From positions 336,040,001 through 336,104,000 of the forward strand of contig OZ024742.1 in assembly GCA_964016885.1 (NCBI GenBank): DNA of 64,000 bases. Direction: 5' to 3'. This DNA comes from Eledone cirrhosa. Taxonomy: Eukaryota. Position 1 is the first letter of the stretch, and each line of letters opens with the position of its first letter. A model generated the notes under the pieces. That model did no database searches, was not told the origin of the DNA, and worked only from the letters and a program-made list of their open reading frames with translations. The translations under genes were made by a program, and so were the position numbers. Positions 11,771 to 25,886 of this stretch are shown here, one piece after another.

Positions 11771-12021
11771 AGTTATGTAATAAACAACATACGATAATTA
11801 TTTCATTTACCAATGGTTTCTTGAAGGCAGATATTTATATCTGTCTTCAGTCGTCAGAATGAATAAATAACATGGTGTTTTTATTAAATATCCCTTGTGT
11901 GATATTTAATAAAAACACCATGTTATTTATTCATTCTGACGACTGAAGACAGATATAAATATCTGCCTTCAAAAACCATTGGTAAATGAAATAATTATCG
12001 TATGTTGTTTATTACATAACT
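11771..12021. mobile_element. Foldback (about 122-bp arms, 8-bp spacer) with a hammerhead on each arm; same family as 5608-5735
   Basis: Minus-strand HHR 11801-11865: ttcatt-CTGACGA-ctgaagacagatat..atatctgccttcaa-GAAA-ccattgg-TA^aatgaa. The plus-strand copy (11930-11990) lacks the G of GAAA. Shares the end gttgtttattacataac(ta)n. Confidence 0.9.
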
Positions 12022-12289
12022 ATATATATATAAAATATAAACATATGTATATATGAATGTAAGTAGTTATATGTATGTGTCTGTGTGTGTCAGTAGGAGC
12101 CTTCCCATTATACTTACGTACATTCACACACGCATACATACACTCATGCATACAAACATACATCCATACACGCACACGTTCATAATACACATACATACAC
12201 ACATACATACACTCATACATGCACTCGTAATCTAACGACCAAGTGTATCAATTATACAAGAAAGAACACAAAACATACCATCAGCATTT

Positions 12290-12610
12290 TTACAATACCT
12301 CTTCCATGCTTCTATGAGTTAGTCAGGTCTTCTCCAAAACATCGACTCATCACCTGTTGCTTTCTTTTGTCATGTAACTCCTTAGTGAGGTTCGGCATCG
12401 CGGAATCAGCTTTTACCATTTCTGCCGATATGTCTTCTTTGGTCTTCCTTTTATGTGGCTTTCCCCACTTTCGATATCCTGGCACTTATTTACCTAACTG
12501 TCACGATCCATACACATGTCATGCCCATACCAAGACAGTCTTCTCTCTTACACACAACATCCGATTCATCTTATACGCGGGTTTTCTCTCAAATTGGGGC
12601 TAAAATATTC
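12290..12610 (-). mobile_element. Old RTE-type LINE 3' fragment
   Basis: Minus strand shows decayed RRL.WYGH...KGRPKKT-like coding remnants. Confidence 0.45.
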
Positions 12611-12987
12611 TGTTTCTTCAGAAAAATTAGGACGTGAAATGTTATGTACTTAGGACTTTTGGAGAATGTCTTTTGGAGTTTGGGAGAATTGTGGTCCGTG
12701 TTTGATTTGCTGAATTCGGAGGGTGGGTACGGTTTGTTTGACAGGAATCACGGGTATAGGTTGGTGTTCGGTTTAGGGTATTTGTTGAGGGTTAATTGAC
12801 TGATTGGAGCAATAACAGACTTATTTACGTATGTTTGTATGTCTGTATGCATGCATGTCTGAATGTATGCATGCATGTATGAATGTATGCATGCATGTAT
12901 GAATGCATGTATGTTTGAATGTATGTATGTTTGAATGTATGTATGTTTGAATGTAGTATGTATGTATGTATGTATGTATGTATGTAT

Positions 12988-13581
12988 GTCAGGTCACCAG
13001 TTGGTGCTACTGGTAACATGTATCCCAGTACAACCTGTCTCATGGTCGGGTCGTTGGCGACTAAACTGGCAACCCCACCAAGGTTTCTTGGTGAGGAGGG
13101 TGACTTTGGACATCCTGCAGGACTAAAAACAAAACCTGTCAAATGGCAAAGGAGCTCTTAAGAGTCAATGGCCATCCCAAATCACCGGGAGAGATGACCC
13201 CTTAGCCTTTGTCAAGGCAGAATTCTAGGAGAAGGAAAACTCTGATATAACACCTGCAACCCTGATGGTATCCAATGATGTTGACTTGTTCTTCTTTTTG
13301 GTAAATATCATCTTGGTTAAGAGAGTGGGACTGGCTTTGTGCAGTGCCTTTGCTCACTATAAAAGCTTCACGGCACAGGCATTGCTTTATATCTGGACAT
13401 CTCTCTTCACTTGTCGTCACATGGTACCATGGGCCTAGCACTATGTGTCAATAAGTGTCACAAGTGTAGTGTTTGTACCAGTCGCTGGCTGGACTAAAAA
13501 GTCACTCGTTCAGCGTCATGGTAGGAGTTCTACATGGATATAGAGTAGTGGCCGTACTCGAAAACGAGTTGGCAGCCACCA
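12988..13581 (+). mobile_element. About 600-bp non-autonomous RTE-related element in (TATG)n
   Basis: Near-identical to 29323-29915. The 3' part resembles the LINE C-terminus (SLAGLKSH) and ends ctcgaaaacgag..gcagccacc(atgt)n. Confidence 0.85.
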
Positions 13582-14375
13582 TGTATGTATGTATGTATGT
13601 ATGTATGTATGTATGTATGTATGTATGTATGTATGTATAGAAACCTCGTACCTCTGTCGACTCTGGATTCTATTACCTAAAGTGCAGCTGGTTATTCTTT
13701 TCTAATAGTTATGTCTTACACCAAAGTTATTAGATCAACAGGGCATGTATGTAGGGACTAAATAGTTAATAAAATAATTAGGTCTCCGTGGTTTTCGATT
13801 ATGATTATTCACTTGTTCGATCCACTAAACAGCTTACTCATTGAATTAGTGGCTGAGTATTCCGCTCAGCGTGATTACAGTGTATGACATGGCTCGGCCT
13901 ACTGAATTAAGATACAATCCATCCAACAGGCGTCCGCAAGCTTCCATCAACATAGTTACACTCATTTTGCTCACAAGGCTTGGATCGGCCCAAGGCTTTG
14001 GTAAAAGACACTTGCCGAAGATGCCATTTTATGGGATTGACCCCGGGACCTCGTGATTGCGAACCGAAATTCTTAACAGAATGATTAAAAAAAAAAAAGA
14101 AAGGAAAACACACGCAGAGAAGCTGATAAAGATTTTGTGAGGCAGAAGGGACAAGTAGTGGCCTTGGCCGTTGTAAGCCCATCCAGGGTAGTGAGATTAA
14201 TACGGCTAATGATCAGTTTGAAGATTTGTATGGAAAATGTGGACAAGAAGCCTATATGTGGTCGCTCATACAGGGGTGACGGGGGCAGGGATGACGGCTG
14301 TCTCGAAGGAACTTGGGTGGAGGTGCAATGTAATTAGATTACGTGTATCAACATGAAAGATACACATGGGTATGT

Positions 14376-14645
14376 GAAGGTGCGTAGCTTAGTGGTTAGG
14401 GTGTTGGGCTCACGAGCATAAAGTCGAGCATTCGATTCACAGACCGAGCTGCGCGTTGTATTCTTGAGCAAGACACTTTAGTTCATTCAAGTTGAAAAAA
14501 AAAATGAGTAGGGCTAGACTTGTTACACACAATGTCACGTTGAATCTCCCCGAGAACTACGTAAAGGGTGCAGATATTTGTGATATGCTCAGCTATTTGT
14601 ATGTTACTTCTCTTGTCGAATGTTCAGTTGATTGAATGGCTGTAT
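14376..14645 (+). mobile_element. tRNA-derived SINE family B
   Basis: A-box tagcttagtggttag, B-box ttcgattc and cttgagcaagacacttt core. Related copies at 27834-28135, 30470-30768(-), 38998-39232(-) and 49700-49998(-). Confidence 0.75.
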
Positions 14646-23937: not shown

Positions 23938-24140
23938 TAGAGAAAAAGAGATGAAATCGAAAATGCAACTGCAGTCTTATTTTTAAAAAAAATATATATA
24001 TTTATTTGGTTCCTTTACCGGTTTCGGTAAAATAAGACTCCAGTTGCATTTTCGATTTCATCTCTTTTTCTTTATACTTTCACTCGTGTAGGACACCTCG
24101 GTTATTTTTCAATTTGTAAAAAAAACCTCACTTTCTAATA
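23938..24140. mobile_element. TA-flanked foldback with unique tail; contains GAAACCGGTA (hammerhead 3' half) on minus strand
   Basis: agaaaaagagatgaaatcgaaaatgcaactg.agtcttatttt is inverted at 24029-24071. taccggtttc lies at ~24016-24025. Confidence 0.65.
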
Positions 24141-24179
24141 TATATATTGGAAGATGTGTGAAGTCTTTCCTACCGACGA

Positions 24180-24345
24180 ATGCGAGAAAGGTCTCCAGCA
24201 AAGTTAACCAGGAATCTTTAAAAATCTCCCCATCGACGTTAAAAAAGAACTTACTAGATCTACACAACCAAATTGTAAAATTATAATATCATAAAATTAA
24301 ATTAAATTGATTAGAACTACAATTGAAGTCATTCTTTTCCTTTTT
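24180..24345 (+). repeat. Dispersed repeat; second copy at 58735-58910
   Basis: Shared aaagttaaccaggaatctttaaaaa...agatctac..aaccaaatt...agaactacaa.tgaagtcattcttt, both followed by (TA)n. Confidence 0.75.
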
Positions 24346-24474
24346 TTAAATATATATATATATATATATATATATATATATATATATATATATATAAATG
24401 AGAGGTATAGAGATTGTTTTAGCAAGAAGCTAACGGCATTCTATAACATATATGCGACTATAACGTCAAGATGG

Positions 24475-24862
24475 GAATATTTCGTTTCTGAATTTGTTTA
24501 GCAAGATTCTTTATCTGAAAACGTGTGTTGAAACCGATATTGTTATACTTTGGGAGGGTCATGTTGCCAATAAGAAACACACGCACCAGTTGGATTCACG
24601 TAGGAAAGAACAAAGGAGAGGCACAAAAAAAGAAAAGAATCCCCAGTCACTGAAGAGGTCACAGAATGTGTGACGAAAGAACTTTGACGATATATGAACA
24701 ACCGTCCGGTTGTGGAACCAGCCAATCAACCAACCGGAAATTTATAAATTAAAAAAAAAAATTTTTTTAAATATTTTTTAATTTATAATAAATTTGAGTG
24801 AAAGTTACTGGTGCGTGTGTTTCTTGTTGGCAACATGACCCTCCCAAAGTATAACAATATAT
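24475..24862. mobile_element. Family F (TA-associated) element with partial inversion and hammerhead-like motif
   Basis: 24538-24592 is inverted at 24808-24860. Motif at 24646-24688: gtca-CTGAAGA-g-gtcaca[gaatg]tgtgac-GAAA-gaac-TT^tgac. Other copies at 23428-23660, 40255-40572 and 48565-48965. Confidence 0.75.
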
Positions 24863-25454
24863 ATATATATATATAGTGAAAAATGGAACGTGAACAAAAC
24901 AGAGGCAGTACAAACAAAGGTTTATTAGTTTCACGCGTACATGTTTGTATGTAATTTATTCAAGAATATACTAATATACTCAAGCACAAATACATTTATA
25001 CGTGCCATATATACATACGTATACATACATATAGTCACCCACAGATTAGATTTCATGAAAGCACAGAGTATTGAGGAGGTGGTGATTCGTGTTAACATTG
25101 ATGTTAATAATAATGGTGGTGGTGGTGGTTGTAGTAGTAGATCTGTTGTATAACGAAAACAAATTTCTGTATTCATAGATATGCATAAAATTGCTTTGGT
25201 AAACAGACGAAATTTATGTATGCATGCATTTATTTATATACCCACATTGAAAACGTGTAGATACATACGTGTATGTATGCATGTATACATATACGTGATA
25301 TACATATATACGTGATATACATATATATATATATATATATATATATATATATATATATATATATATATATATATATATATATATATATATATATATATAT
25401 ATACGTATGTATATGTTCATATATATATCTACACACATATATATATATATATAT

Positions 25455-25886
25455 ACAATATATTAATAAATGGAAACTATATTTATAAAACCATATTTAT
25501 TTTATTATATATATTTCAAGGGCAACCAAGGCAAATTATGGTGCGCTTTCATCAGATAAAATACAGATTTGTTTTATAAATAAATATTGACATACCCCGA
25601 TAAAAGACAACCTTAACGGTTGGAGCTTCCTGTTAAGGTTGTCTTTTTTCCGGGTATGTCAATATTTATTTATAAAACAAATCTTTATTTTATCTGATGA
25701 AAGCGCACCATAATTTGCCTTGGTTGCCCTTGAAATATATATAATAAAATAAATATGGTTTTATAAATATAGTTTCCATTTATTAATATATTGTGTATTT
25801 ACTCCACTAAACTGTTGAGTGCTTTATTTCAGTTATAAAAATGTTTAAGCTTGTTGAATCCCAACAAATTAAATATAACCTCTGCA
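25455..25886. mobile_element. Foldback (about 165-bp arms) with two hammerheads plus unique tail; sister of 19703-20055
   Basis: HHR(+) 25686-25751: tattttat-CTGATGA-aag..ctt-GAAA-tatata-TA^ataaaata. HHR(-) 25498-25563. Confidence 0.9.

Follow-up and report, generated by a model that had tools for sequence, protein, structure and literature searches.

In Penelope-like elements (PLEs), an inverted 5′-truncated copy is described as a frequent part of insertions (PMC8557442; PMC2377424), and the origin of these copies and of the one-sided tails has been named an open question (PMC8557442; PMC3846280). For Poseidon, a PLE of the lizard Anolis, in vitro work reported that both strands are cut and extended and that two internal RNA start sites bound the tail; a dimeric form was predicted for the protein (Frangieh et al. 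2024, PMC11167929). Here we analysed eight foldback loci in a 64,000-nt stretch of the 3.0-Gb genome of Eledone cirrhosa (contig OZ024742.1, positions 336,040,001–336,104,000, forward strand; hereafter the window), together with their relatives elsewhere in the genome. Loci in the window are named by position. Judged from their sequence, the foldbacks are 5′-truncated insertions of several Hydra-clade PLE families, and our preferred reading (probability about 0.7) is that each would represent one insertion into a TA microsatellite through two target-primed reverse transcription starts on RNA of one source, one per nicked strand, with the 3′ ends of the two complementary DNAs (cDNAs) joined. 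A preliminary description of this DNA had implied a departure from known PLEs in the inversion itself, but the inverted copy was already known to be frequent in the group, as cited above.

Layout of the foldbacks

Inverted repeats were confirmed at 8/8 named loci, with measured stems of 34–170 bp rather than the hairpins of 120–240 bp first reported, and with 0–8 substitutions per locus between the arms, in line with the few substitutions first described (Table 1). Both arms read outward and their 5′-truncated ends meet at the centre, an arrangement termed head-to-head in PMC3846280, so the earlier wording "tail-to-tail" must be replaced. The proposed order of (TA)n, inverted partial copy, forward copy with tail and (TA)n holds at the four large loci (17908, 19703, 21057 and 25455), which have a TA run on either flank (the right-hand one short at 17908; a CT run ahead of the TA at 21057), but the right run is absent at 34476 and the left one at 39249, where the left arm ends 40 nt inside the usual family end. 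Likewise, the left arm lacks the last ~86–100 nt at the large loci, as described, whereas tails are ~60–65 nt in the families of 11771, 23938, 34476 and 39249, and 11771 is a minus-strand element whose tail is the left-hand part.

The large loci share the upstream GGTATGTCA and the tail motif ACTC..GAGTGCTT (ACTC reads AGTC at 21057), as had been noticed before. They form two related families, 17908/21057 and 19703/25455, with arm identities of 87% and 79% within the pairs and 71–73% between them, supporting the view of two subfamilies in one lineage; the N-terminal part of the open reading frame (ORF) is identical at 50/89 positions between the two. Below, families are labelled A (21057), B (25455), C (11771), D (39249), E (23938) and F (34476).

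Fixed outer ends

A first look with the forward arm of 21057 gave 2384 candidates in the genome, 40 of which were scored. An exact 22-mer running from the tail-less end of family A into TA has 497 genome matches and its read-through form 380 (controls 0 and 0), and the exact tail end into TA has 154 (control 1). The first 100 of these 154 tail ends, in genome order, served as the family-A sample; it was reduced to 98 by dropping L109 (second end of one insertion) and L171 (a read-through copy), and four insertions whose arm was too short for BLAST were scored by hand. An adjacent inverted segment was present in 83 of the 98, confirming inversion as the usual product. In 66 of those 83 (L031, which ends at −97, was left out of this count) the outer end of the inverted arm lies at −90 to −101, i.e. 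97 ± 6 nt before the tail end. Family A thus has fixed ends at 0 (tailed) and −97 (tail-less). In score-selected samples of 16–24 loci from the other families, the fixed tail-less end is at about −89 in B and at −61 to −68 (in our coordinates) in C, D, E and F; the fixed end of B was found within 1.5 kb in 15/24 loci.

The tail-less end also appears in raw short reads of three other samples from one study, where that of family A runs into TA in 88, 93 and 155 reads. An opposite-strand joint of family A is common to all three samples, and joints of this kind for family B occur in two of them, from 1–3 start places; this support applies to families rather than to single loci.

Element identity

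The Penelope-like origin suggested earlier is supported by long copies, which carry a reverse transcriptase (RT) together with a GIY-YIG-type nuclease at the C terminus in a single frame. YRDD and VY..YIG..R..E..N can be read by eye in an open frame of 750 aa in L134 and in partial ones in L035 and L033; Pfam matched the element frame weakly (RVT_1, E = 0.017) and gave no GIY-YIG match in it. The motifs described for the Hydra clade are RWK-like, DKT and CxCx5C with no CCHH (PMC8557442). Here, in families A to D, RWR/RWK forms part of the ORF start; KSDKT (DKT replacing DKG) occurs in L134 and L135, and, by eye, CNCRNRSNC (CxCx5C), CNLC and CLH (the CxxC and CxH next to E and N) in L032/L035; the nuclease core has, also by eye, one Cys and no second His, so CCHH is absent. 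Through read-through copies, each of the families of 25455, 11771 and 39249 can be joined to an ORF start of Hydra type that is its own. The families of 34476 and 23938 yielded no ORF, and their proposed membership rests on layout, hammerhead-like motifs and, for 34476 only, a shared stem (H1, below).

Both ends lie at TA in most loci, and a target-site duplication is not discernible inside (TA)n. The unit of family A is ~4.0 kb with a 1.45-kb 3′ untranslated region; at L309/L310 (G000:C3:174982665 and 174986666) two sites of the second stem described below (H2) lie in the same orientation 4001 bp apart, forming a tandem unit. Two other assignments were rejected. Naiad PLEs have an N-terminal nuclease and no hammerhead, whereas the nuclease here is C-terminal and hammerhead motifs are present. 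Non-long terminal repeat (non-LTR) retrozymes are likewise non-coding, hammerhead-bearing derivatives of PLE pseudo-LTRs (pLTRs), but they are head-to-tail tandems (bioRxiv 10.64898/2026.07.22.740005); the foldbacks are inverted pairs and 5′-truncation products of coding elements, and tandems are rare (L205, L324).

Arm asymmetry and junctions

Within the 66 foldbacks the tail-less arm reaches further 5′ in 48 and the tailed arm in 11, the two ending within 5 nt of each other in 7 (sign test P = 1e-6). The tail-less arm is longer by >50 nt in 33 of 66, and the tailed arm measures ≤104 nt in 15, so that the arms barely overlap; in L179, L150 and L131, tailed arms of 45–175 nt stand beside tail-less arms of 2.3–3.5 kb. 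Because a fold-back copy must lie within its template, a tail-less arm that exceeds the tailed one calls for two separate syntheses, unless later deletions hit mostly one arm. Of 62 foldback junctions, 26 have an overlap of 1–10 nt and 2 a larger one; extra letters number 0–2 in 10 junctions, 3–40 in 19 and over 40 in 5.

A snap-back or self-priming origin would need only one cDNA, or antisense RNA as in PMC3846280, that folds at a short palindrome and is copied, with an endonuclease cut at −97 setting the second end and later deletions at the hairpin centre giving the asymmetry. Variants common to both arms would be directly explained, and the junction overlaps of 1–10 nt, a CATG palindrome within the pile-up zone of the inner ends (below) and symmetric −264/−264 centres (L114, L163) fit this course of events. 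Long palindromes do lose their centres, but random central deletion would neither favour one arm nor stop at a fixed site, and the copy cannot outreach its template, as the tail-less arm most often does. Moreover, solo arms with no partner share the same end site (L101, L046, L211, L217, L219), and family B, different in sequence, piles up at the same distance. Snap-back fits poorly with these arms; we consider it unlikely, and already largely refuted for most loci.

Inner ends and the putative RNA start

Inner ends fall at −256 to −275 in 28/66 tail-less and 19/98 tailed arms (P = 1e-14 and 2e-6, respectively, among ends from −330 to −200). The site reads TCACTG; TATAAA lies 30 nt ahead of it, and a donor-like GGTATGT follows 38 nt further on. 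In family B the pile-up lies at −265 to −276, and solo arms end at the same distance. We infer that the pile-up reflects run-off at the RNA start, which is likely the transcription start. Tailed arms extending beyond −275 (22/98) need tandem transcripts, and long read-through copies do exist, the 4001-bp tandem among them. We rejected stalling at H1 as evidence on the tailed cDNA: 24/98 tailed arms end at −104 to −43, but ordinary truncation decay predicts likewise.

GGTATGT (window 18186 and 21227; loci of families A and B) resembles a splice donor and lies 38–43 nt after the putative start; if it opened an intron that closed with the AG at H2, the hammerhead and the tail would fall within that intron. 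The AG ahead of H2 is missing in 9/29 B matches and in the one D copy, and no spliced genomic copies were seen among 26 H2 matches, a result that is uninformative.

Similarity of the arms

Arms overlapping by ≥60 nt were compared at 61 loci, drawn from 87 pairs among 124 loci, 29 of which had been added from score-selected, ORF-anchored or tail-less-anchored sets. They differ by 2.8%, against a mean of 4.8% between copies, and the difference is the lower of the two in 53/61. Similarity is independent of loop length (rho −0.04; loops up to 3.5 kb), and hairpin-driven gene conversion as its main cause was rejected on the absence of this effect. Most variants common to both arms (66%) recur in at least two other loci. 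At polymorphic sites the arms are discordant in 42/520 cases (8.1%) versus 29% when shuffled (minimum 19.8% in 1000), with near-complete concordance at a 104:60 site at −169. Family B behaves in the same way, with arms at 1.8% and copies at 3.0% (15 pairs; 0/1000 shuffles). The divergence comparison, proposed at the outset to separate one snap-back template from two templates, points to a single source lineage but matches neither a single snap-back nor two random templates, and suggests two separate syntheses.

Priming on two RNAs from a pool of active copies, with the similarity due to co-active copies or to later gene conversion between the arms, would account for the residual discordance, and heavily overlapping arms demand strand displacement if a single RNA was used. 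The predicted protein dimer could carry two RNAs (PMC11167929). Pooled templates do not, however, lead one to expect the near-complete concordance at −169, similarity undiminished across the longest loops, or common variants that are mostly inherited rather than private, and we hold this origin to be rather improbable.

Twin stems and the proposed mechanism

The tail motif reported in the preliminary description is a predicted bulged stem, RCTC...GAGY-RCT (H1), which starts ~5 nt after the tail-less end, with a TA ambiguity of a few letters. A matching stem (H2) lies at the same offset past the tail end, in read-through leaders before the ATG only, and the H1–H2 spacing of 97 in L031 equals the tail length. 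In four families, A to D, H2 stands behind the tail end. It is rare, with 26 exact matches for family A types, all directly after the tail-end sequence; its closing GAGC-RCT is present in 11/12 B loci read, 3/5 C read-throughs and the D copy. Searches for H2 in D and F gave 72 and 381 matches, of which 10 loci each were read; most were ends of microsatellites.

When a bulge of 2 nt is allowed, complementarity at the three pairs that follow is 80/77/74% among 260 distinct instances, chiefly as C-G or T-A, compared with 9–54% in other registers and 77% in one. For the strand downstream of H1, the best pairing partner is the one downstream of H2 in its own group, A, B, C or D (shuffle P 0–0.055), and this linking helix is built from unrelated, covarying sequences in the four. 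The bulged stem can also be seen by eye in Hydra consensi published for coral, octopus and sea cucumber, the last with two of them in a leader (PMC8557442, supplement File S7). No description of twin stems or twin priming for PLEs was found in the literature searched, from which absence from print is not established. As a separate observation, the native tail end in the B read-through loci L333–L344 reads ATATAT, complementary to a nicked (TA)n primer; brief microhomology may aid priming there.

We propose that the element protein, probably as a dimer, would cut both strands of (TA)n and bind the H1/H2 domain. A start before H2 from one DNA strand would give the tailed arm and a start before H1 from the other the tail-less arm, the tail corresponding to the H1–H2 distance. 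On the 5′ leader both cDNAs would run off the RNA start, yielding the common foldback of 350–450 nt, whereas starts on the 3′ pLTR or on a tandem transcript would yield long arms; the cDNA ends would then be joined by short microhomology or small insertions. More tentatively, and with somewhat less than even odds, a conserved two-stem domain of the leader RNA in Hydra-clade PLEs could seat two RTs at a fixed spacing, making every insertion a twin, position-programmed priming from both cut strands on one RNA. If so, the PLE tail (as stem spacing) would be accounted for, and head-to-head inversion would be what insertion normally yields. Should an intron extend from GGTATGT to the AG at H2, its splicing would take out H1 and disrupt H2, leaving only unspliced RNA copyable, which would also explain intron retention by PLEs.

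Alternatively, RCTC..GAGY-RCT could act in DNA, not as a start signal in RNA but as an endonuclease site at which an intermediate is resolved in two places. The final six letters of the motif form a near-palindrome, PMC8557442 suggests that the tail stems from endonuclease resolution, and PMC11167929 recalls that the Penelope tail is required for endonuclease recognition. The compensatory pairs in the bulged stem and a long-range helix of unrelated sequences in four families instead indicate structure in single-stranded RNA, which makes the DNA-level signal very improbable. An assembly or long-read fold-back artefact is hardly credible even though no read or contig spans a whole locus, because each arm often has sequence absent from the other, which a read fold-back could not make, and because the ends at TA are fixed and family-specific, the arms differ by 1–3% and the raw reads of three other samples show the tail-less end into TA and the opposite-strand joints.

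Several observations weigh against twin priming on RNA of one source. An inverted arm is absent from 15/98 family-A insertions, and some insertions have two tailed or two tail-less arms (L108, L103, L068). The discordance at polymorphic sites (8.1%) exceeds the 2.8% elsewhere, so some pairs may mix templates; the nearest other copy averages 2.0%, below the arm–arm distance; and the data fit one molecule or two from the same locus alike. The transcription start and the stems are predictions: minimum free energy folds often favour other pairings, constrained folds cost 0.7–4.2 kcal/mol, and the 260 stem instances are related copies rather than independent events. The search patterns held part or all of H2, which leaves the closing half, the helix and the ORF start as independent features, L031, L134 and L033 having been found with patterns free of H2. 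Finally, the H2 loop is 65–90 nt in C and D, with the closing motif intact in only part of the C copies as given above, D rests on one copy, no read-through was found for F (0/10 loci) and E is without such a stem.

Hammerhead motifs

Hammerheads were sought with our own minimal type I descriptor, which gave 14 matches in the window versus 0–2 in each of 20 shuffles. Both arms pass it at 17908, 21057 and 25455 only (3/8 named loci). At 19703 and 34476 the left arm alone does so, whereas 11771, 23938 and 39249 have no arm that passes. In place of the ribozyme on each strand originally described, a candidate hammerhead on each strand is seen at three loci but not at the other five, and in family A both arms are long enough to span the hammerhead in 31/66 foldbacks. 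Rfam returned no hammerhead among the matches listed (150 of 231), nor on 21225–21330; its microRNA-type matches were rejected as microsatellite noise below gathering scores. In predicted folds of read-through RNA from the three loci with paired motifs (−242 to −288 kcal/mol), the forward hammerhead core is paired inside the long duplex, and the hammerheads are predicted to be passengers locked in it. If read through, the stubs would be predicted to seed the genome with long double-stranded RNA. Hammerhead cleavage as a source of truncation was rejected, with no excess of inner ends at the predicted cut at −156 (2/18 tailed, 0/8 tail-less).

Family E (L268, L269, L271, upstream of the match to 23938) shows, by eye, a hammerhead-like motif with a TTGAAAA core and a palindromic stem III. 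It is very young, its 40 top matches being 100% identical, and its tail has no RCTC..GAGY stem.

Features of the window

Table 1. Foldback loci in the 64,000-nt window, with the extent of pairing between the arms of each locus
Feature	Position	Strand	Details	Paired arms
17908, tail-less inverted arm	17909..18156	−	arm 17909-18070; hammerhead core 18014	162 bp, 1 substitution
17908, internal tandem duplication	about 18071-18150	−	reaches to centre
17908, forward arm and ~93-nt tail	18157..18411	+	short TA run after
17908, forward-arm marks	GGTATGT 18186; hammerhead core 18213		predicted cut after 18262
17908, bulged stem H1	18324..18351	+	ACTC..GAGT-GCT; just past tail-less end position
19703, tail-less arm	19703..19889	−	exceeds forward arm by 107 nt at centre	80 bp, 1 substitution
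19703, sole complete hammerhead motif	core 19803		in tail-less arm
19703, forward arm and tail	19890..20055	+	begins 3′ of hammerhead core; H1 19974-19995; then (TA)n
21057 (family A), tail-less arm	21054..21215	−	−97 to −259; hammerhead core 21159	143 bp, 2 substitutions
21057, forward arm and tail	21216..21460	+	from −239; (CT)n(TA)n after
21057, forward-arm and tail marks	hammerhead core 21253; mutated H1 21364-21391		predicted cut after 21302
25455 (family B), tail-less arm	25455..25631	−	to −269; hammerhead core 25555	170 bp, 5 substitutions
25455, forward arm and tail	25632..25886	+	from −254; hammerhead core 25694; H1 25801-25823; then (TA)n
11771 (family C)	11707..12026	−	arms 11767-11892 and 11901-12026; hammerhead motifs damaged in both	125 bp, 0 substitutions
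11771, tail	11707-11769		~63 nt; H1 GCTC..GAGC-ACT 11742-11765
23938 (family E)	23936..24137	+	tail-less arm 23936-24028; forward arm 24029-24076; ~61-nt tail; complete hammerhead in neither arm; no RCTC..GAGY stem	48 bp, 2 substitutions
34476 (family F)	34457..34650 (end approximate)	+	66-bp arms; H1 in tail 34599-34620	66 bp, 8 substitutions
39249 (family D)	39246..39427	+	34-bp arms; forward-copy H1 39371-39393; (CT)n(TA)n after	34 bp, 3 substitutions

Further repeats occur in the window. A 335-bp foldback between TA runs (59010-59697) has two apparently tail-less arms, each with a U3-A8 hammerhead variant (TTGATAA core), and a partial direct copy ahead of it (~58982-59048). Another TA-terminated family (6219, 26010, 38357) carries the same H1 stem (ACTC..GAGT-ACT) and forms small foldbacks at 5754-6210; no hammerhead in it passed the descriptor. 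Hammerhead-like stubs of other families lie in TA runs at 24541-24856, 40318, 56643-56679, 5653 and 30403, some with a 50-bp inverted end. A 134-bp foldback at 22446-22749 is without TA flanks, hammerhead or H1. A long inverted repeat centred on TA (37842-38989) has ends CAGTGTCCC facing outward, which we take to be Tc1/mariner-like, and is split by another TA-targeting insert at ~38286-38508.

Comparison with known elements

In L1 twin priming, each of the two cut strands supplies a primer, and the outcome is a 5′ inversion with a microhomology join; the position of the second start varies, and there is hardly any overlap between the arms. In the foldbacks described here, by comparison, that position is fixed, and overlap of the arms usually makes a hairpin.

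Compared with the Hydra clade (PMC8557442), the elements share the C-terminal GIY-YIG-type nuclease, the RWK-like, DKT and CxCx5C motifs, the lack of CCHH, a hammerhead in the pLTR and (TA)n targets; Hydra-clade elements are generally <3 kb and family A is ~4.0 kb, a difference rather than an exclusion. The nearest named member is Hydra-1_Obim (Craig et al. 2021, PMC8557442), a likeness judged by eye from the supplement, where it is entered as "no pLTR", unlike the elements here. The sections of that paper on Hydra do not describe inversion frequency, tail length or twin stems.

The same head-to-head inverted copy with a one-sided tail is found in Penelope of Drosophila virilis (PMC2377424) and in Pen2/Pen2a of Adineta vaga (PMC3846280), which are also alike in their junction palindromes and in a TATA/Inr-like TCACT in the pLTR. 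Promoter and intron spacing in Penelope is similar, with the donor-like site 46 nt after the start versus 38 here (PMC2377424). Tails are 60–100 nt here versus 30–40 in Penelope/Pen2, and most insertions here are short, ORF-less stubs, unlike those elements. Self-priming, the model put forward for A. vaga (PMC3846280), is at odds with the arm lengths seen here.

The layout itself had thus been published; the quantitative case against self-priming and the twin-stem domain were not met with in the literature searched. Hundreds to thousands of young insertions discriminate between models and speak against self-priming as published. They also single out a small RNA domain, covarying across families and phyla, for mutation in in vitro assays of a type already in use. 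Since telomerase is the sister group of PLE RTs, a start site defined by structure would be of wider interest. Anolis Poseidon likewise has two internal starts bounding the tail, cutting and extension of both strands and an in vitro reaction that does not need ribozyme cleavage (PMC11167929); the text on Poseidon does not address inverted insertions. The Poseidon starts lie in one AC-rich stem-loop inside the ORF, whereas those proposed here would lie before two matching stems of the leader.

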